Of a DNA stretch of 64,000 bases, positions 2,530-53,101 are shown piece after piece. Numbering within the stretch: position 1 is the first letter of the stretch; each line of letters begins with the position of its first letter. The notes below the pieces were generated by a model. That model searched no databases. It worked only from the letters and a program-made list of their open reading frames with translations, and was not told the origin of the DNA. Both the position numbers and the translations under genes were made by a program. Source of the DNA: a virus. The DNA is taken from positions 1-64,000 of the IMG/VR virus record IMGVR_UViG_3300031539_000008. One strand, given 5' to 3'.

Positions 2530-3675
2530 CTAGGACGCCATGTACTTCTTGCTCTTGGTTGCCCCGTGGGCGACCACGAGCTTGGCGTCTACGAGGCGTG
2601 CCAGGCTCTTGCGGAGCTGGTTCGCGTTCACGCCACGGATCAGCGGGGCGATGTCACGCGAGGGGGTCCAGTCGTTCTTGGCCTTGAGCAAGGCGAGGAC
2701 GTGTTCATCCAGCGCGCCAGTGCCCGACGGCGCGGCGCCCTCGGCAGCACGCTGTGGAGCCTTGCGCTTCGCCGTCGGCTTGGCCTTGGGCTCCGGCTTG
2801 GGTGGGGGCGCCGCCGCCTTCGGCTTCGCTGCTGCCTTCTTCTTGGCCTTCGCTGGCTTGCGCTTGCGAGGTGATGGGGGCGGGCGGAAATCCCGACCGT
2901 TCGGCGGAAAGCCACCGGGCGCGTCGAAGGTCACCGTCTCCTCCTCTTCTTCCTCTTCATCGGACGCATCGCGTCCTAGCTGATACCCGCCGATGAATTC
3001 CTCCAGCATTGGCATCGCTGATTCGACGAGTTCCTCCACGGTCATGTGCTTGATCTGGGAGTAGATGGAAAACAAAACTGCCGGCCCAACGACCCGCAGC
3101 AGGGATGGTGGTTCTTCGTGTAGCATTCCGTCCATGGCAGTCCGTATCCTGCGCGGGGGATCTTCCAGTGTCAAGATGCTCCTCGGCGGAGTGATTACGG
3201 CCCCCAGTGAACTCCAAGCGCGCCGAAACCGCGCCACGTCACTCCCGTAATAGATTACCGCCTGGTCGTAGCGATTCCCCTTCTCGGGCACGCCGTCGTA
3301 CAAGAACGCCACCCGAGTCTCCAGGAAGCAGATGGCGGAAGCCTGCCCCCAGACGTAGCGGTGCCAGTACCGAGAGCCCGACTGCACGTTCACGATGGCG
3401 AGCGTCTCGGCCAGCCGGTAGCGCCAGTGAAGGGCCGCCCGCATCAGCCACATGGCCGGCTCGGAGTAGGGGCAGTTCAGCCAGACTCGTCCGCGCCATG
3501 GCAGGACCAGGCCGTCCTGGCCGCGTCTGATGTCGTAGTTCCGATGGGCGAGCGTCAGTCCGCTCTGGTCGTGGCACGGGTCCAGGTCGGCCAGACCTCC
3601 GAAGGTCCTGGCCATCCGCTTGGCGATGGGTATGGGGGTGCAGTAGCGGTCACGATCACGCTCGTTCTCTGGCAT
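2530..3675 (-). CDS. Phage-type N6-adenine DNA methyltransferase fused to a basic linker and C-terminal winged helix
   Basis: YCTP, DLDPC, DGL..PW.GRVWLNCPYS motifs; C-terminal wHTH-like segment; start reassigned to MPENE at 3675. Confidence 0.75.
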   Translation of the reverse strand: MPENERDRDRYCTPIPIAKRMARTFGGLADLDPCHDQSGLTLAHRNYDIRRGQDGLVLPWRGRVWLNCPYSEPAMWLMRAALHWRYRLAETLAIVNVQSGSRYWHRYVWGQASAICFLETRVAFLYDGVPEKGNRYDQAVIYYGSDVARFRRAWSSLGAVITPPRSILTLEDPPRRIRTAMDGMLHEEPPSLLRVVGPAVLFSIYSQIKHMTVEELVESAMPMLEEFIGGYQLGRDASDEEEEEEETVTFDAPGGFPPNGRDFRPPPSPRKRKPAKAKKKAAAKPKAAAPPPKPEPKAKPTAKRKAPQRAAEGAAPSGTGALDEHVLALLKAKNDWTPSRDIAPLIRGVNANQLRKSLARLVDAKLVVAHGATKSKKYMAS

Positions 3676-3745
3676 TCCGTTTCGTTCCGCCGCGGATGGT
3701 ACAGGGCGGAAGATCTGCGCGCAACCGCCGTGATAGGCTCGACGC

Positions 3746-5458
3746 ATGCCCAAGGTCAGCCTGGACACCGTGTTCGACGGAGTGAAACCGTTTGCCGAGT
3801 TCGCTGTAACGAGCGATTTCGAGTCTGACTTGCCAACTGAGGATACGTTTGCTGCCGCCAACGTGTCCGCTCTCTACAACATCACGCAGTACGAGCTGTC
3901 GGGCCTGAGTTTCAGCAACTGGGCTGACCTCTCGGTGCGATCCCTCTATAACATCGGAAGCTCCTTCGGCATAGAAGCGTACCAGATGGAGTCAGTGGGT
4001 GATTTTGCCAATCAGCTCCTCACGCTATGGCGCCAGCCCCCTGGAACTACGGGCACGGATATAATTGAAGGGACGCTCATCTCGGCACTAGATCTGTCGA
4101 TGTCAGCGATTGGCCAAATCCCAATCGTTGGATGGGTCGTCCAAATCGCCTACGAGCTGGCGATGATGATCTACGACGCCGTCAAGATGTTCAAGGACTC
4201 AAAGAAAGATGTCCCCATCAAGGCGCTGGCCTACAGCTCTGGACGCGACAACGACATGGTGAAGCGGGCCTTGAAGTTCACTAACGCGGTGGACTGGACC
4301 GAGGTGTTCTTACCGGCCACGTCTCCTTCATCGTTCAAGAGCAAGTCGATTTCCTTCGGAAATGACGACGACGGCGTGAATCTCTTGGGCTATCTTGTTA
4401 TGCCGGATCAGCACGAAATCCTCGGCGGGCTCGGAGTTCTCCCGGGACTTCCAAAAGTATTCGACAACTTTCAGCTCCCGCATTGGTACAAGGAGAGCAA
4501 GACGCCTCTGCCCGGAGAGAGCCCGTCTGGTTGGCCAGGCACTTCCTCGGGTCAGGACACTCCATTTTGCAGGGTTGGCTGGTACTCAGGCAACAAGCAC
4601 ATCCAGGCCAATCTCTGCAAGAACATCGGAGAGTTCCAGCCGACCATGCAGCAGTTCGGCTACAACCTGTGGAGCATGGTGCGGACGAATGGCGCCAATG
4701 CCTTCAAGATCGCACAGAACTATACCGCCGGGCACTGGGAAGACTATTTCGGAGCCCTGGTCGAGTACATCGAGAATCAGGCGGCAAACAGCGGAGACAA
4801 CAACGCGAGACAGCGCGCCTACGACACGGGGATGTCTTCCTCTGTCGGGTGGTACAACCCCTACACGGGTGACTACTACGCCTTCGGCGAGATTGGAAAC
4901 GTCCCTGGATTCGCCAAGTACCTACAAGATGAAGGGGACCGGAACGGAGCATTCATCAAGAACCCGCTGCGAGCCGGAGGGGCTCCCCCGGAGAACACTT
5001 ATCTGGTGACCTATGGAGCGCTGGTCAAGTTCTTGCTCAACGGGCAGCTTCGCGCCTGCTACCAGAACTTTCTCAAGACCATTACTGTCGCGTACGTCAA
5101 CGAGTCGTTTCCGGCCATCGGCGGCCCCGTCGTTGCCCCCAGTTTCAAGCAGCGGTGGTTCGACAACCGCAAGCTCCTCTTGAAATCCTCGGCGGTCCAT
5201 GACGTGGAGCTGGACTTGATCCCCGACAACGAGTACGCGGCTGCGGTCTCCCAGGCGCAGAAGCTCGGTGGCTTCCAGATCACTGCCGCGCCCATCCCTG
5301 GGATCATCGGGGACATCGCCCCTCCGCCTGACTACCCTGAGTACCCCCACCCTCCTCCGCTTGTTCCGCCGGGACGCGGCCGTGGGGGGAAAGGCGCTGG
5401 AGCGGTGCTCGCCATCGCTGCCATCGCCGGGCTCATCCTGCTCGGTAGGCGTAGGTAG
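3746..5458 (+). CDS. Hypothetical 570-aa protein with C-terminal transmembrane anchor (probable virion membrane protein)
   Basis: Long ORF; Pro-rich linker, then AVLAIAAIAGLILLGRRR. Confidence 0.7.
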   Translation: MPKVSLDTVFDGVKPFAEFAVTSDFESDLPTEDTFAAANVSALYNITQYELSGLSFSNWADLSVRSLYNIGSSFGIEAYQMESVGDFANQLLTLWRQPPGTTGTDIIEGTLISALDLSMSAIGQIPIVGWVVQIAYELAMMIYDAVKMFKDSKKDVPIKALAYSSGRDNDMVKRALKFTNAVDWTEVFLPATSPSSFKSKSISFGNDDDGVNLLGYLVMPDQHEILGGLGVLPGLPKVFDNFQLPHWYKESKTPLPGESPSGWPGTSSGQDTPFCRVGWYSGNKHIQANLCKNIGEFQPTMQQFGYNLWSMVRTNGANAFKIAQNYTAGHWEDYFGALVEYIENQAANSGDNNARQRAYDTGMSSSVGWYNPYTGDYYAFGEIGNVPGFAKYLQDEGDRNGAFIKNPLRAGGAPPENTYLVTYGALVKFLLNGQLRACYQNFLKTITVAYVNESFPAIGGPVVAPSFKQRWFDNRKLLLKSSAVHDVELDLIPDNEYAAAVSQAQKLGGFQITAAPIPGIIGDIAPPPDYPEYPHPPPLVPPGRGRGGKGAGAVLAIAAIAGLILLGRRR

Positions 5459-12648: not shown

Positions 12649-12825
12649 ATGAGCAAGCGGTTGGAGAAGAAACTCCAGTTCGTGGCCCGCGCTTTCGTCT
12701 GGGAGAACCGCTTTCAGAAGACACGCCAGGTCGTCAGACTCGTGCGTGGCCACGTCAACACGGCCAAGGACGCGAAGCAGGCTGTGAGCTTCTGGGCCCG
12801 GCTCCTGCTGCCCAAGACAGACTAG
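12649..12825 (+). CDS. Small basic hypothetical protein
   Basis: ATG 6 nt after TGCTACCAT; fills gap between flanking genes. Confidence 0.4.
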   Translation: MSKRLEKKLQFVARAFVWENRFQKTRQVVRLVRGHVNTAKDAKQAVSFWARLLLPKTD

Positions 12826-13949
12826 CTGAGCCCGAGTCGCCTGCGGAGAGCTGAGCGGGCTCGCTTGTGCGGGTTCTGCCCCGGTCCTCCGCCCGCCCGC
12901 TTCTTGGCCTCCTCCAGCGCCTTGATGGCCACGTCCATCTTCTTGCTCTCTTCGGCCAGCAGCTCCGCCTCCGCCTTGAGGTCCTCCATCGCCTCCTTTT
13001 GCTCCGGAGGGGACATCGTCATCAGCTTCTCGGGCGTGACGCTGACATCGGCACCGAGGCGCTCGTGGATGTCCTTTTGTAGCTTGGTGCGAGCCTTGGT
13101 CAGCGCGTCAGCCACGAGTTGGCGGTCGGCGAACCCGCCAACTACCTCCATGATCTTCGCAGCCGACATCTTCTCCATGTCTGCCAGGCGGACCAGCTCG
13201 CGGTTCTTCTCGGACAAGCTGTCCATGGCCGCCGCGACTGCGCGAGCGATACGGCGGGCACCGAGGCTGTACCCTGCCGTGCCCGTGGCGATTCCAGGAC
13301 TAATGCCAGCGATCTCCTCTTGAATCTTCGCGGTCGGCCTGACCGACTTGGCAAAACGGCCAAGGCGACGCGACCACTGCTTGCAGTTGTTGGTCACAAT
13401 CCTGTACAGCCAGGTGTAGAACTTCGATTTCCCTTGGAAGGAGCTGATCTTTTCGAGCGCGGTGAGGAAGGCGTTTTGCGTCAGATCCTTGGCATTCTGC
13501 TGGTCACCGATGGACCATCCTTTTCGTCCTGCACGCACGCAGTTGAGGGCGATTTGGTAGACCCTGTCGTAGTAGAGGGAGTAGAGCGCGCCAAATGCCT
13601 CCTGGTTGCCTGCCTGAGTTTGACTGACCAGCTCGACGATGGCCTCTTCATCCTCGCGGTCTGGCACTTTGGCCTTGGGATTCGTCCAGAGAATCGGGAC
13701 CGCCAGCATCTCCCGATCCGATCCCATGTCAGCGAGCACTCTGGACTGAAGCTGCGACGCCAATCCCACCGCCTCGTCGAGTAGGTGCACGTCTCCAGAA
13801 TACTGAGCATGCTCAGCAGCCGCGACCGCGTGCTCCAGGGCGTGAAGGCCAGCAGCCGGCGCGCGTAGGCGACTGAGCTTTCTGGCCGACTTGAGGTAGC
13901 TCTTGGCGACGTGCGCATGCACGGGCTGCGTCGGGTTGGTCCGAGCCAT
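12822..13949 (-). CDS. ECF-type sigma-70 factor with N-terminal helical module and C-terminal tag
   Basis: GNQEAFGALY..YYDRVY, DLTQNAF, SFQGKSKFYTWLYRIVTN (region 2); LSEKNRELV...MSAAKI (region 4); ends QNPHKRARSALRRRLGLS. Confidence 0.85.
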   Translation of the reverse strand: MARTNPTQPVHAHVAKSYLKSARKLSRLRAPAAGLHALEHAVAAAEHAQYSGDVHLLDEAVGLASQLQSRVLADMGSDREMLAVPILWTNPKAKVPDREDEEAIVELVSQTQAGNQEAFGALYSLYYDRVYQIALNCVRAGRKGWSIGDQQNAKDLTQNAFLTALEKISSFQGKSKFYTWLYRIVTNNCKQWSRRLGRFAKSVRPTAKIQEEIAGISPGIATGTAGYSLGARRIARAVAAAMDSLSEKNRELVRLADMEKMSAAKIMEVVGGFADRQLVADALTKARTKLQKDIHERLGADVSVTPEKLMTMSPPEQKEAMEDLKAEAELLAEESKKMDVAIKALEEAKKRAGGGPGQNPHKRARSALRRRLGLS

Positions 13950-13956
13950 CGGCGCC

Positions 13957-13966
13957 ATGGTAGCAT
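13957..13966. promoter_or_regulatory. Bidirectional extended -10 element
   Basis: TGGTAGCAT 7 nt before GTG 13974 (+); TGCTACCAT 7 nt before ATG 13949 (-). Confidence 0.6.
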
Positions 13967-13973
13967 CCACAAC

Positions 13974-14981
13974 GTGTTCCTGACGACAGACCAGCCGGAT
14001 GGGGCCCCTTCCGAGACCTACGACTTCGTGGGCAAGTACCGCGGGGGGCACTTCTACATCAAGCTAAAGTCCCCGCCGAACGCGACAACGGCGAGCTATC
14101 GCCTGGACTACAGCAAGGCGCGCAGGGGGAAATGGGGGAGCCACCTCGACTTCCACCTGTTCGCAGAGACCCTCGCACTGGCCATGCGCGAAATGAAGTG
14201 CAGGGCCGATTGGGAGCTGTGGCAGGACGAGTGGGTTGCTTCGGACAGTCTCATCCACCGGGTGGCCAAGAGCAACATCGCGTGGCACATCCACCAAGGA
14301 TACTCCATGGGCCCGTGGGGGTTGGTGGGCATGGCGGAGGAGGCTGACAAATGGTTCAAGCACCTGGAGGTGACCCGCGGCGCGAGCGTGGTCCAGGAGT
14401 GGTGGCGCGCCCTGACATTGGACCAAAAGAGCGCTTTTCTGCGGGACGTTTGGATTTGCGAGGGGAAGGAAGTCGAGGGGCCCGCCGAGCCGTCCCCGCC
14501 ACCGAAAAGGTCCAAGCCGGATTCCGGAAAAAAATCGAAGGCCAAGACGATGCGCCATCGTGTCCGCGTGAAGGCGTCCGACACCCCGATTGTCGACCGC
14601 CTATTCGGCCACTGCAAGAAATGCCGTGTCTGCCTGGCCTACGATGTGAGCCACGGCTGCTGCACGGTCTGCGGACGACAGCTCACCCCCAACCCCGAAG
14701 ATTGGTACAAGGAGTTCATCGGGGACTGGATTCTTTCCCTCTACCCCTGGGGAGGTGCATGGAGATTCGAGCTTTACAACGAGAAAATGGACCAGGAACT
14801 CACCGGCAGCGAGCCCACGCGCTCGCGTGCTCTGGCGGCTGCCCGCCGCATCGTGATGCGCTGGCGGGCGAAGGAGAATCCGCAGCGAAAGAAGGTGGTC
14901 AAGTCACGGAGGTCCCAGACGAAACGCAAGAGGACCGAGAAGGACCGCGCGGATGTCTTCCGAAGGATGATGAAGCTGTGA
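13974..14981 (+). CDS. Multi-module protein (Zn ribbon) with C-terminal tag (VFRRMMKL)
   Basis: CKKC..C/CCTVC; NP motifs; tag. Confidence 0.65.
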   Translation: MFLTTDQPDGAPSETYDFVGKYRGGHFYIKLKSPPNATTASYRLDYSKARRGKWGSHLDFHLFAETLALAMREMKCRADWELWQDEWVASDSLIHRVAKSNIAWHIHQGYSMGPWGLVGMAEEADKWFKHLEVTRGASVVQEWWRALTLDQKSAFLRDVWICEGKEVEGPAEPSPPPKRSKPDSGKKSKAKTMRHRVRVKASDTPIVDRLFGHCKKCRVCLAYDVSHGCCTVCGRQLTPNPEDWYKEFIGDWILSLYPWGGAWRFELYNEKMDQELTGSEPTRSRALAAARRIVMRWRAKENPQRKKVVKSRRSQTKRKRTEKDRADVFRRMMKL

Positions 14982-19069: not shown

Positions 19070-20185
19070 CTAGGCGACGCGCGCCAGGTCCACCTTGAGT
19101 TCCGCGACGCCGACGGTTGGAGCCGCGGTGACGGTAGTGACGCGCGCGAGGAGGGCGGTGGCCCCGGCGTAGATGGAGGCCTTGCTGGACTGGTAGGTCC
19201 CCGTGGCCGCCAGGTCGTTCTCCGTCGCGGCGAATACGGCGTCGAGATCGGCCGCGACACCGATCTGCAAGGTCACCCCATTGTCGAACGCCGTGGTCAC
19301 CAGCACGACGCCGCCCTGGACAAAGGAGTTGGCGGGCATCGTAGCGCCGAGCGCGAGGTTGGTGGAACCCGGGGTACCCGGGAAGTCCGCGAAGGTGACC
19401 TGTAGGTAGCGGTACAGGACGGCGACGCCGGCGGCCAGCTTGCCCTCGGTGATGGTGCTGTTGGCGATCTTCGCTCCGGTGATGCCGAGCGCGACCACCG
19501 ACACCAGCACGTCGGTCCCCGAAAGCGACGCCACCAAGACGGTGGACTCGCCCAAGATTCCGCGAACCGTGGGAACCGGCGCCGCACCGCTCTCCAGCAC
19601 GGTGATGCCAGTGACGCCAGCAGCCGTGGCGATGCTGGTGACTCCGGCTGAAACCGAGGCAAACTGCAAGAACGTCAGCGGGTCGGTACCCACGATGGCC
19701 GGGTCACCCGTCTCCACGTAGGCTTGGTCAGCCTGCGTCGTGCCCTCGCTCACGAACATGGCGGCGTTGGTCGCATCCGATCCAGCGGCCATGTCTGTGG
19801 CACGCACCAGCGGCGTCGCGGCCGTGTCGAACACGTAGATGCCGTTCTCGATGGCCGCCGTCTGGTTCTTGAGCAGTACCCGGTCGCCGAGGACCAGCGC
19901 CACGCCGTCCAAGCTCGCGCCTGGCGCCGCGATCGTGACGTTCGCGGTCGAGGCAGCGCGGACGTACTCCTTCCAAGAGAGTCCCAGGATCGCAGCATCC
20001 AACTGGGACTTGATGACGAAATCGTTGGCCGCGACCGCTGCGGCGCCCGACATATTCACATCTGCCGCGTTCGCGTTGTCGCGCGCACGAAGCTGCGTGG
20101 CCGATGCTCCGACGATGGTGGCGTTGCCCTTGCCGAAGTTGACGACGGACGCGAGGCCCGCGAGGGTGAAGTTGTATGCTGCCAT
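19070..20185 (-). CDS. Phage fibre/decoration protein
   Basis: WKEYVRAASTANV...LDGV.L..GDRVLLKNQT...ENGIYV domain common in phage fibre proteins. Confidence 0.8.
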   Translation of the reverse strand: MAAYNFTLAGLASVVNFGKGNATIVGASATQLRARDNANAADVNMSGAAAVAANDFVIKSQLDAAILGLSWKEYVRAASTANVTIAAPGASLDGVALVLGDRVLLKNQTAAIENGIYVFDTAATPLVRATDMAAGSDATNAAMFVSEGTTQADQAYVETGDPAIVGTDPLTFLQFASVSAGVTSIATAAGVTGITVLESGAAPVPTVRGILGESTVLVASLSGTDVLVSVVALGITGAKIANSTITEGKLAAGVAVLYRYLQVTFADFPGTPGSTNLALGATMPANSFVQGGVVLVTTAFDNGVTLQIGVAADLDAVFAATENDLAATGTYQSSKASIYAGATALLARVTTVTAAPTVGVAELKVDLARVA

Positions 20186-24382: not shown

Positions 24383-24528
24383 CCGTCACCATCACCGTGT
24401 AAGCACTTGATATTATTGAGGAAATCGGTAGAAATGCGTGCGTAAAGGCACGTTCAACGTCGCCGTTAGAGTCCGAATTCGTACGTCTAAGGTGGGTTGA
24501 CGGGCTCCCTCACCGGCTTACTCTTGGA

Positions 24529-24555
24529 TGTCCGATAAGTGCGAGTTGTCGGTCA
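24529..24555. promoter_or_regulatory. Putative recombinase core site (lox-like imperfect inverted repeat)
   Basis: TGTCCGATAA-GTGCGAG-TTGTCGGTCA, arms 8/10 complementary, 7-bp spacer, just upstream of the probable recombinase start. Confidence 0.45.
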
Positions 24556-24587
24556 TCGTGGGGCGCAAGCGAAACAACAACACGGCC

Positions 24588-25859
24588 ATGGAGCTGTTGC
24601 CGAATGCGGCTGCGGCACTGCGCACCGAGGCACTGAAACGTCACCTGGAGCGTGGCGATGATCTGGCCAGCTACGCGCGGTCGGATCGGACGCAACAAGC
24701 CTACGAGTCGGACGTGCGCCAATGGCTCGACTACGCGAAGCGCCATGGCATTCCGCCGTACCCGATCTCTCCTTCCGCCCTGGTGGCGTACCTCGGGTAC
24801 ATGGACGAGCGCGACTACAAGGTGGCGACCGTCAAGCGCCGCCTGGCCGGTCTGGTGCAGTGGCACCAGAGCCGTGGCGATGCGCTTCCGATGGGCCCTA
24901 AGCTAAAGGAGCGCCTCAAGGGGCTCCGGCGGAAAAAGGGGGTGGCCCAGACTGCGAAGCGGGCATTCACCCTGGAGCAGATTGCCGAGATGCTCTTGCT
25001 GATGGGGGATAGCGATGTGGAGTGCCGCGACAAGGCCATGCTGCTCGTGGGGTTTCAGAGTTCTGCGCGCCGAAGCGAGCTGGCCGAGCTGACCTGGGAA
25101 GACGTAGAGGAGCACCAGACCTTCTGGCTTCTTCACATCCGCAGGTCGAAGACCGACCAAGAGGGCCTGGGTCAGGATGTTGTCCTACCGCAGGAGGGCG
25201 GCTTCAGTGCGCTTGCCGCCCTGAGAGACTGGCGAGAGCGACAGGGAACCGGCACTGGACCAGTCTTCGGCATCACAGATCGGACGATAGCCAGGCGCGC
25301 GCAGCACTGCGCGAAGATGATAGGCCTAGACCCCGGCGTCTACGGGGCTCACTCCTTGCGCAGCGGTTTCGCCACCGAGGCCGACCGCAAGGGCGCATCT
25401 GTGAGGGAGATTCAGGGGCAGACGCACCATAAGGATGCAAGGATGGTCGACAGGTACATTCAGAAGCGTGCGCAGGCCGAAAACAAGGCCGCGCGTCTGG
25501 TAGCCGAAGGGCTGAGCGAATTGACGCCGAAGAAGCCGCGAGGGTACGAGGTTGACCTCGGCGACTATCGCGTCTTGCTCGTCGACTCAAGCTCAGGAGA
25601 GCCCGTCGCGTGGGGCTTCCCGCTGCTCAAGTCGCTCGGCGAGGAACGCTTCTCCGCCCTCGGTCAACTGGGCGAGTTGGCGTGCCTGGATCACGTCAAC
25701 GGCGGCAAGTACGGCTTCGTGGTGCGCCGGCTGAACCATGCCGAGGCGATTCGCAAATACGGAGAAGTCACCGGGCGGGAGACTGGTCCGCGCGGCGGCT
25801 GGCGCTCGATCACGTACGGAAAGACACAGTTCCTGAGCAAGCTGGACGGGGACCAATGA
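24588..25859 (+). CDS. Tyrosine recombinase, Cre-like, with C-terminal extension
   Basis: SAM-like N-domain (T..AYESD...W), RDKAMLL..F.S.ARRSEL, RSKTDQ.G, GAHSLRSGF, H...M..RY. Confidence 0.92.
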   Translation: MELLPNAAAALRTEALKRHLERGDDLASYARSDRTQQAYESDVRQWLDYAKRHGIPPYPISPSALVAYLGYMDERDYKVATVKRRLAGLVQWHQSRGDALPMGPKLKERLKGLRRKKGVAQTAKRAFTLEQIAEMLLLMGDSDVECRDKAMLLVGFQSSARRSELAELTWEDVEEHQTFWLLHIRRSKTDQEGLGQDVVLPQEGGFSALAALRDWRERQGTGTGPVFGITDRTIARRAQHCAKMIGLDPGVYGAHSLRSGFATEADRKGASVREIQGQTHHKDARMVDRYIQKRAQAENKAARLVAEGLSELTPKKPRGYEVDLGDYRVLLVDSSSGEPVAWGFPLLKSLGEERFSALGQLGELACLDHVNGGKYGFVVRRLNHAEAIRKYGEVTGRETGPRGGWRSITYGKTQFLSKLDGDQ

Positions 25860-38636: not shown

Positions 38637-38798
38637 ATGAACGACAAGGATGACGACAAGTGCACCTCCGGCTTCCACTGTGGGAACCAGGCCACCGAGC
38701 CTCACCCGTGCCCATACCGTGAGGAGATCAACGATGACAGCGAAACGCTGTGCACCTGCTGCCAAGAATGCGCGCAAGAGTGCGCCAACGACATCTAG
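38637..38798 (+). CDS. Cys-rich metal-binding peptide (paralog of 29212-29388)
   Basis: HPCPYREEINDDSETLCTCCQEC; below ORF-track cutoff. Confidence 0.6.
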   Translation: MNDKDDDKCTSGFHCGNQATEPHPCPYREEINDDSETLCTCCQECAQECANDI

Positions 38799-39376
38799 GA
38801 GCCAGTGATGGAAGAGTGGTTCCAGAAGATGCAGGACTGGCACGAGAGCCTGTGCAAGAGCCCGAGGGTTCACCGAATCAACGGCAAGGACACGACCCTG
38901 CTCTGCATGCGCGAGAAGGGGCACGACGGAGACTGCATGGAAGCGCTCGCGGAGCCGGAGGATACCGATGACTGACGCCTACCGGACCCAATCTCCGCAG
39001 CACCAAGAAGCGTGGGACTGGGACGTAATCGTGTACCCAGACGGCTCCATCCGCGTGCTGTGCATCGCGAGCGAGTGCGTGCACAAGTGCAGCTACTCGT
39101 GTGACTGCGCGTCCAAGCCTCGGATTTCGTCACCCATCGTGGACGAGTACGAGAGACCATTGGTCGAGACGCCCTACGCCAACGTGTCGACTGGCGATGC
39201 GCGCCATCTGCTGACGACGAGATCCGGCTCGCTGATCTCGGTAATGTCTGGCAAGACCTACCGCCTGCATGGACCCCGGGTCGTTCACCAAGACTTCGCG
39301 AGCACGTCGATCTGGGCGATTTACAGAGATCCGGAGCCACACCCTACGTGGATCCAACGCGTCACGGGGTGGCTGC

Positions 39377-39685
39377 ATGCGTGAGCTGCCCATCGGAGCG
39401 ACCGGGGGCGCCTGCTACCCCGCCGAGCGCTTTCAGATCCGAGAAGGCTGGCAACTGGAGGTGACTCCGCTCACCCTCGGCCGCGCGCGCATCATCCACA
39501 CGGACGGCGTGTCCGTGGACGACTTCTGGTGAATGCCATCCATGGAGGCCGCGGTCGTGGCCTTGGCGGAGTTCATGCTGAACGCTACGATGCTGGAACC
39601 CGAGGGCTGGAACCGATCCAGCTACGGCGCGTGGACACGCAGGCGCCCGAACCTGCTGCGTGAAGAGGAGTACGTCGCACCATGA
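39377..39685 (+). CDS. Candidate selenoprotein / UGA-readthrough gene (in-frame TGA 39530-39532)
   Basis: DDFW-UGA-MPS...EPEGW.R...RRRP reads as one protein; SECIS-like hairpin follows the UGA. Confidence 0.6.
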
Positions 39686-39915
39686 AACAATTTCTCAGTA
39701 GTGGATTCTCTGGAGCCATGGCCGGTTTTGCCGTCGTCATCTTCGCCGCATTCATCATGTTTCCAAGTGAGGCTCCAAGACGCCCAGATCCAGAGCGCGC
39801 TCGCTTCATGCTGGAGTGCGTCTCCGACCACCAGTACGCTCCGTCGACCTGTGCGGCGATCTGGGAGGGAGAGGACCCCCCTCAGATGGCGAACGGCGTC
39901 AAGCCTGGCTGCTGA
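39682..39915 (+). CDS. Small membrane protein
   Basis: N-terminal TM; ATGA overlap with the readthrough stop at 39685. Confidence 0.55.
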   Translation: MKQFLSSGFSGAMAGFAVVIFAAFIMFPSEAPRRPDPERARFMLECVSDHQYAPSTCAAIWEGEDPPQMANGVKPGC

Positions 39916-52900: not shown

Positions 52901-53101
52901 TCAGCGTCGTCGGGATCCCTTTTTCGGCCGCGACCGCGGCCCACCGGAATACCGTCAGCCAATCCCCGGGCCGCATGACGCGTCCCCCACTCCCCTGAAG
53001 TCGTGGAAGGACTGTGGTGCGATTTGTGGTGCGATTTGTAGCGTGGAGACGGTCGCCGCGTTGGCGCGGTCCACATCGGCTTTGCTTGGTTGAGTAGCCA
53101 T
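52901..53101 (-). CDS. Candidate small selenoprotein (in-frame TGA 52957-52955)
   Basis: MATQPSK...RGVGDASCGPGIG-UGA-RYSGGPRSRPKKGSRRR; perfect GGCCGC-GGTC-GCGGCC hairpin downstream of the UGA. Confidence 0.55.

Follow-up and report, generated by a model that had tools for sequence, protein, structure and literature searches.

Computational evidence for a probable bacterial-type selenoprotein gene, marked by an in-frame UGA and a covarying SECIS-like hairpin, in a family of phage proteins

We analysed a 64-kb window of DNA (64,000 nucleotides; G+C 63%), which is the first part of a 102.6-kb viral contig from IMG/VR (IMGVR_UViG_3300031539_000008) with a completeness of 71% as estimated by CheckV. 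PHROG matches identified an integrase, an RNA polymerase sigma factor, a DNA methyltransferase and a head-decoration or virion-structural domain (Table 1), and most of the other large ORFs (570, 567, 513, 498 and 454 aa) were without a PHROG match. It is probably a temperate phage, and a very poorly charted one. A search of the contig for tRNA genes found none encoded, and hence no tRNA-Sec. The gene under study is a small gene that runs for 51 codons to ...VDDFW, meets a TGA, and then continues in the same frame through MPSMEAAVVALAEF...EPEGWNRS...RRRP. Its start ATG overlaps the stop of an upstream 138-codon gene (ATGCGTGA), and its terminal TGA, at 39683-39685, overlaps the ATG of the next gene (ATGA). 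An earlier note, made from the letters alone, had described a frame that passes the TGA at 39530 and reaches a stop overlapping the next ATG, and the sequence bears this out to the exact coordinate. The start at 39377 is further supported by a close relative, L246, in which the protein likewise starts there, with MRDLPP... The C-terminal half is translated only with readthrough of the UGA. The genes on either side are also small and tightly coupled, through ATGA and ATGCGTGA overlaps. Two small Cys-rich ORFs on the plus strand (38637-38798 and 38805-38975; 53 and 56 aa) belong to this tightly coupled cluster of mini-genes and lie directly upstream of the gene; they contain several CxxC-like spacings and may be zinc-binding or redox proteins.

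Table 1 Features of the window and of the gene with the in-frame UGA
Feature	Position	Strand	Description
DNA methyltransferase	2530-3861	-	PHROG match
RNA polymerase sigma factor	12822-14051	-	PHROG match
Head-decoration or virion-structural domain	19070-20185	-	PHROG match
Integrase	24528-25859	+	PHROG match
Whole gene	39377-39685	+	102 codons including the in-frame UGA (codon 52), plus the terminal TGA
N-terminal half	39377-39529	+	51 codons, ...LTLGRARIIHTDGVSVDDFW; beta strands 1-4 of the predicted domain
In-frame TGA, proposed selenocysteine codon	39530-39532	+	Residue 52
C-terminal half	39533-39682	+	50 codons: ...EAAVVALAEF...LEPEGWNRS...RRRPNLLREEEYVAP
SECIS-like hairpin	39545-39564	+	8 bp, 39545-39552 with 39557-39564; GGUC loop 39553-39556

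Searches of GenBank phages by megablast and tblastn with the window's own sequence were without a match, Pfam and PHROGs searches with the window's protein and with its halves returned nothing, and word and peptide-pattern searches with the single window protein found no relatives. Relatives, 39 in all, came from an exhaustive search of 1.84 billion representatives with phmmer. Of these, 20 are full-length and span the UGA site, 16 had been called as proteins of 41-53 aa that end exactly at the Trp preceding the site, and 3 start a few residues past it. Splitting at the site in this way is how gene callers treat selenoprotein genes. Further members were collected with two DNA patterns. The main pattern (Trp, any T-starting codon, a gap, EPxGWxR, a gap and RRRP), which is able to match TAA, TAG, TGA, TGY or TGG at the site, was run on IMG/VR and matched 108 stretches, 102 of them family members after filtering. 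The second pattern consisted of the N-terminal half of the window's subgroup and the first T of the site codon, and recovered 10 loci from JGI metagenomes; the window groups with this metagenome subgroup in the family tree. The family motif is W-[U/C]-[YF]-[DE]...A.A.AL...EPxGWxR...RRRP, and its members come from phage contigs of soil, sediment and aquatic habitats (about 70 with UGA at the site and more than 40 with Cys). Bacterial genomes rarely carry the family, with 2 positives among 401 sampled genomes in a profile search of the phylum of the metagenome-assembled genome G001, and the ESM Atlas places it in unnamed clusters that are mostly from viruses and Pseudomonadota. A neighbourhood comparison found no gene neighbour that is conserved across the W-[U/C]-[YF] family.

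The Cys forms include proteins of cultured phages: the Caulobacter jumbo phages BL47 (gp271c), CcrBL9, CcrSC, C1, C2 and others, Brevundimonas jumbo phages, Sinorhizobium phage Phosso, and members of phrog_24748. These homologs, of ~95-102 residues and annotated as hypothetical proteins, share ...DRWCYE...EPxGWHRHPxTxRRR... and are roughly 30-40% identical to the window's protein. They differ from it in having TGC or TGT at the site and a single uninterrupted ORF, and the wider Cys group is without the hairpin described below. The earlier note had described similar phage proteins as reading DD.WCY...EP.GW.R...RRRP, which would put Cys at the position of the UGA, and the relatives match this motif.

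At the site itself, the 20 full-length database relatives have Cys in 12 cases, Asp in 4, Gln in 2, and Trp and Gly in 1 each. The codons of the 102 IMG/VR members are TGA (60), TGC (27), TGT (14) and TTA (1), with no TAA and no TAG, and all 10 of the JGI metagenome loci have TGA. The combined 112 relatives thus have TGA in 70 cases, TGC or TGT in 41 and TTA in 1, and the Trp before the site is invariant. TAA and TAG are absent, against 70 occurrences of TGA, under patterns that admit all three stops; the terminal stops of the same 102-member set are TGA in 64 cases, TAA in 19 and TAG in 18 (63%, 19% and 18%). On a tree of the 102 members calculated with the site masked, the site state (Sec, Cys and one Leu) changed at least 7 times, compared to about 31 times with shuffled labels, indicating that Sec and Cys have been exchanged repeatedly. 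Homologs that are consistently split in two had been named beforehand as an outcome that would speak against a selenoprotein. They are not: Cys occupies the site in 41 viral relatives and in 12 of the 20 full-length ones from databases, and the homologs that are split are split always at TGA and never at TAA or TAG, with no start codon behind. Nor is Trp or some other residue consistently found at the site, which had been named as a second such outcome: the residue is mostly Cys, and D, Q, W, G or L in some relatives. The Leu belongs to L010 (IMGVR_UViG_3300005253_001115; codon TTA), the sole such member in IMG/VR. Together with the Asp, Gln, Trp and Gly of some database relatives, it implies that some lineages can dispense with the site residue, an unusual property for a catalytic Sec or Cys.

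The in-frame TGA itself, and nothing more, might suggest a genome-wide change of code, with TGA a sense codon in the phage or its host. Against this, TGA terminates the gene itself, the genes around it and 64 of 101 family members, the long ORFs are open under table 11 at a GC content of 63%, and the contig carries no tRNA. We regard the probability of a changed code as negligible.

The window has an ATG immediately behind the TGA, so that separate initiation is conceivable for this copy. Taken alone, a TGA-ATG junction in a run of coupled mini-genes looks like two genes, and the small size and tight coupling of the neighbours (through ATGA and ATGCGTGA overlaps) fit such an arrangement, in which two genes of 51 and 50 codons would be coupled via TGA-ATG and the hairpin would be a GC-rich stem that arose by chance where an Ala-rich helix is encoded. 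The relatives argue otherwise. The residue that follows the internal TGA in the 60 UGA forms from IMG/VR is Tyr in 54, Phe in 5 and Met in 1, the last being the window, and in 8 of the 10 JGI loci it is Phe, Tyr or Leu, with Met only in L243. An ATG right behind the TGA is therefore confined to the window and L243, and its absence from the other relatives identifies the window's ATG as a peculiarity of its lineage and not as a conserved start. Past the TGA the relatives read Tyr/Phe-Asp. No conserved start codon for a separate second ORF was found among the relatives; 59 of the 60 IMG/VR UGA forms, and the window's closest relatives, are without a start after the TGA. In addition, the Cys homologs in cultured Caulobacter and Sinorhizobium phages are single ORFs. 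We consider a pair of coupled genes very improbable, and conclude that 39377-39685 is one gene of 102 codons and not two genes of 50 codons. L243 (metagenome contig SDBU01128326.1, site 920, minus strand) retains the TGA and the GGUC hairpin, with an ATG behind the TGA as in the window; its C-terminal part is short (24 residues) and unrelated, and it may be a decaying or rearranged copy.

Sequence conservation continues past the UGA. In 9 of the 10 JGI loci, which had been found by the N-terminal half alone, a C-terminal half of the window type follows in frame (LEPxGWNRSxYG...RRRPNL..EE[FY]VA). We compared codon positions in the 8 codons after RRRP, a stretch outside every search pattern. The mean pairwise differences at positions 1, 2 and 3 are 0.29, 0.25 and 0.59 among the UGA forms and 0.31, 0.27 and 0.57 among the Cys forms, and third codon positions thus vary most downstream of the UGA. 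To judge from this codon pattern, the region past the UGA is translated in frame and is under purifying selection. The same results bear on whether a TGY-to-TGA nonsense mutation has inactivated the gene, or whether the TGA arose through faulty sequencing or assembly. A single base change separates TGA from the Cys codons and the contig is a metagenome assembly, both of which would suit such an origin. Nevertheless, the same TGA recurs in about 70 diverged contigs in which the C-terminal half is conserved under codon-level constraint, and assemblies from Logan, JGI and ENA have ORF calls of their own for the window's C-terminal piece. With the TGA in about 70 independent contigs and the C-terminal ORF in independent assemblies, the sequencing error that the earlier note had wished to see checked is ruled against, and a broken gene or an artefact has next to no probability.

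The fold of the RNA agrees with the proposal that a stem with a GGUC apical loop lies 12 nt after the UGA (Table 1). Counted from the U of the UGA, the loop occupies nt 24-27, which places its central G and U at positions 25 and 26. On its own, the window's hairpin has a folding z-score of -1.3, and 16 of 200 shuffled sequences fold at least as well. A z-score of this size speaks for the chance stem supposed by a two-gene arrangement. The 102.6-kb genome contains 8 hairpins with a GGUC tetraloop, compared to 3.8 +/- 2.1 in shuffles, and a search for Rfam families in 39300-39800 gave no match. Thus, the hairpin by itself is not beyond chance, and its significance comes from the comparison with relatives.

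For this comparison we scored the window's 8-bp helix in an ungapped alignment (A4) of 58 distinct UGA forms. Paired cells amount to 77.8%, compared to 63.3 +/- 1.4% after shuffling (0 of 500 shuffles reach the observed value), and changes on both sides of a pair were seen in 80 cells, compared to 31 in shuffles. The covariation score is 0.438 against 0.203 for shuffled alignments (0 of 500), and registers slid along the alignment score 0.20 or less. Columns 24-39 and 27-36 display up to six pair types each, wobble to wobble; they join third codon positions, and amino-acid conservation therefore cannot explain the variety of pairs. The same columns in 37 Cys forms (A5) are paired in 43.9% of cells compared to 43.5% when shuffled, with covariation scores of 0.136 and 0.140, and thus the Cys forms show no covariation above shuffles. 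A stem of at least 5 bp is present at the site in 62 of 67 distinct UGA forms versus 3 of 37 Cys forms. The GGUC loop at nt 24-27 is found in 48 of the 67 UGA forms and is absent from the three Cys-form loops listed, and G25-U26 is present in 63 of the 67 versus 2 of the 37. Further loops among the UGA forms include AGUU and CGUGC. The SECIS-like hairpin that had been proposed from a single sequence is therefore a structure that covaries in the family and is specific to its UGA forms. Covariation among UGA forms, and absence from Cys forms, are at odds with a chance stem between two genes.

Several members appear to have switched recently. L079, L064, L071 and L031 are Cys forms nested among UGA forms, and L073, L078, L088 and L092 are UGA forms nested among Cys forms. 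L079 has a decaying hairpin, in which the GGUC is kept and stem pairs are lost, while L078 and L092 have differently built hairpins with CGUGU or CGUGC loops. In these members the RNA element looks to have been lost and gained independently.

The readthrough product was modelled with AlphaFold2 from a 77-row alignment. The model is one compact domain (mean pLDDT 85.7, pTM 0.74), with pLDDT values of 93-98 across residues 21-100, including the site, in which four strands are followed by a helix (56-68) and then by another three strands. Both halves of the gene contribute to this single predicted domain, which is a further argument against two genes. Two genes, a changed code, and a TGA owed to gene decay or misassembly are each effectively excluded by the evidence as a whole. 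Residue 52 lies at the end of strand 47-53, just ahead of helix 56-68, so that a selenocysteine there would stand at the N terminus of the single long helix. The N-terminal end of a helix is a typical position for a reactive Cys or Sec nucleophile, and we infer redox or nucleophile chemistry for the protein. Sequence databases gave little to compare: none of 77 family members has a meaningful match in Pfam, phrog_24748, which has no assigned function, matches 15 of the 77, and a PDB sequence search with the family found no match. Fold searches (Foldseek against the PDB, VIA wide and BFVD) gave a best Foldseek E-value of 0.15 and a best VIA Z-score of 4.5. The weak top matches, a PUR repeat and the DddI immunity protein (Z 4.5), were not trusted, and neither these searches nor the ESM Atlas pointed to a function.

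The gene thus shows all the computational hallmarks of a gene for a bacterial-type selenoprotein: Sec/Cys pairs among the homologs, UGA as the only stop codon at the site, coding constraint past the UGA, and a covarying, UGA-specific hairpin with a conserved loop. Since a UGA stands where other relatives have Cys, and a hairpin has co-evolved with it, the gene most likely encodes a selenoprotein. On the strength of these sequence comparisons, we consider it very probable that the UGA at codon 52 is decoded as selenocysteine by the SelB-tRNA(Sec) system of the host. In the mechanism that we propose, a ribosome would arrive at the UGA, and the hairpin 12 nt downstream would offer its apical GGUC loop (G25, U26) to SelB-GTP-Sec-tRNA(Sec). 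SelB would then bring Sec in competition with release factor 2. Termination would leave a 51-residue fragment, and recoding would yield the full single-domain protein of ~102 residues. Dependence on SelB and the incorporation of selenium at the UGA are accordingly features of the proposal, as is the supply of SelA, SelB and tRNA-Sec by the host. Two tRNA-rich phage records with UGA forms contain no tRNA-Sec: the tRNA arrays around their best matches to the tRNA-Sec model contain no UCA anticodon, and their near-threshold matches proved to be tRNA-Tyr and tRNA-Ser. As the phages have no tRNA-Sec, any Sec machinery must come from the host. Among the matches listed from a pattern scan of genome contigs, nearly all of them chance matches in GC-rich genomes, one bacterial bin has a true UGA copy (L176). 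The bin is the proteobacterial G001, and the copy is close to a portal gene on a contig of phage-like character. In G001 we found no selA, and no selB or tRNA-Sec over the cut-off, a caveat to Sec decoding that is weakened by the unknown completeness of the bin and by the possibility that the contig is mis-binned.

The main rival to Sec decoding is UGA readthrough of another kind, in which the hairpin delays the ribosome or impedes the release factor, a standard residue is inserted by some other factor or by a near-cognate tRNA (Trp or Cys), and products of 51 and 102 residues are made in a fixed ratio. Programmed UGA readthrough occurs for the A1 protein of phage Q-beta, where part of the ribosomes pass a UGA to give a short and a long product. 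The Q-beta readthrough inserts Trp, and is not known to need a loop-specific hairpin or to involve alternation of Cys and UGA, whereas in the present family the loop sequence is conserved and UGA alternates with Cys. Such a mechanism would suit the search of G001, where no sel genes were found despite its UGA form, the Trp at the site in one database relative, and the lack of the bulged U that is found in E. coli. A roadblock hairpin, however, needs no conserved loop, yet G25-U26 is kept in 63 of the 67 UGA forms and the stems covary. Furthermore, UGA alternates specifically with Cys codons, through at least 7 switches, UAG and UAA are never used at the site, and no suppressor tRNA was found on the contig or in the tRNA arrays of two related records. 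We therefore hold readthrough with a standard residue to be unlikely, and decoding of codon 52 as Sec to be the better account.

We compared the phage hairpin with the prototype of the bacterial elements. In the SECIS of E. coli fdhF, G23 and U24 of the apical loop and a bulged U17 are conserved, U17 and G23 are given as contacts of SelB, and a stem-loop of 17 nt, the minimal one, begins 11 nt past the UGA (PMC8659212). As in fdhF-type genes, the phage UGA is in frame and aligns to Cys in homologs, and the stem-loop follows the UGA directly on its 3' side, within the coding sequence. The GGUC apical loop, the conserved G-U, the variable and covarying stems and the fixed distance from the UGA are also shared. 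Unlike fdhF, the phage hairpin is without a bulged U in its 5' arm, its loop is at nt 24-27 instead of 22-25, 2 nt further downstream, and its stem begins 12 nt past the UGA instead of 11 nt. It therefore falls outside a strict fdhF-type SECIS definition (U17 bulge, G23/U24, 11 nt). A second difference is that the phage hairpin is in a gene of a bacterial virus, from a family without cellular annotation, where the role of SelB is putative.

Virus-encoded selenoproteins are a textbook rarity. A review names only two, both poxvirus glutathione peroxidases, those of molluscum contagiosum virus and fowlpox virus, and the fowlpox SECIS is in the coding region (PMC8310308). Like these, the phage gene is a virus gene for which we propose that UGA is read as Sec via host machinery. 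The poxvirus proteins belong to eukaryotic viruses, rely on a eukaryotic SECIS and SBP2, and derive from a captured cellular gene of known function, whereas the phage family has a bacterial-type signal, is phage-specific and has no assigned function. A literature search, with most subscription journals outside its reach, found no report of a selenoprotein of a bacterial virus, and as far as searched this is the first report of a probable phage selenoprotein. Because gene callers divide each UGA form into a pair of "hypothetical" mini-ORFs, database annotation of the family is systematically wrong. A SECIS of 20 nt and a 100-residue domain with a single Sec make a compact natural test case for recognition by SelB, and the Cys-form phages already in culture offer a handle on the role of the protein. 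The gene also raises the question of whether phages depend on, or sense, the selenium metabolism of their hosts. It is possible, although we hold this only tentatively, that the proteins form a widespread, phage-specific selenoprotein family, with a fold that has no match in the PDB, in which the Sec or Cys state tracks the Sec-decoding ability of the host. If true, the UGA and its SECIS would act as a gate set by selenium supply and by the host, with the 102-residue protein produced only in Sec-competent, selenium-replete cells and the 51-residue fragment produced otherwise. Sec decoding would then be a resource exploited by bacterial viruses, and possibly a determinant of productive host range.

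Two further hairpins of this kind were observed on the contig. A second candidate gene in the window, at 52904-53101 on the minus strand, begins at a TGATG overlap and has an in-frame TGA at 52955-52957. Its hairpin, at 52926-52941, has a perfect 6-bp GGCCGC/GCGGCC stem and a GGUC loop at nt 23-26, in a geometry near-identical to that at 39545-39564, and falls in what is otherwise a 65-nt intergenic spacer. The extension past the UGA consists of only 16 basic residues, and a homolog search with this candidate found none besides itself. The third GGUC-tetraloop hairpin is outside the window, at ~100349 on the minus strand, and has an 8-bp stem, a TGA upstream and a loop that starts from nt 29.
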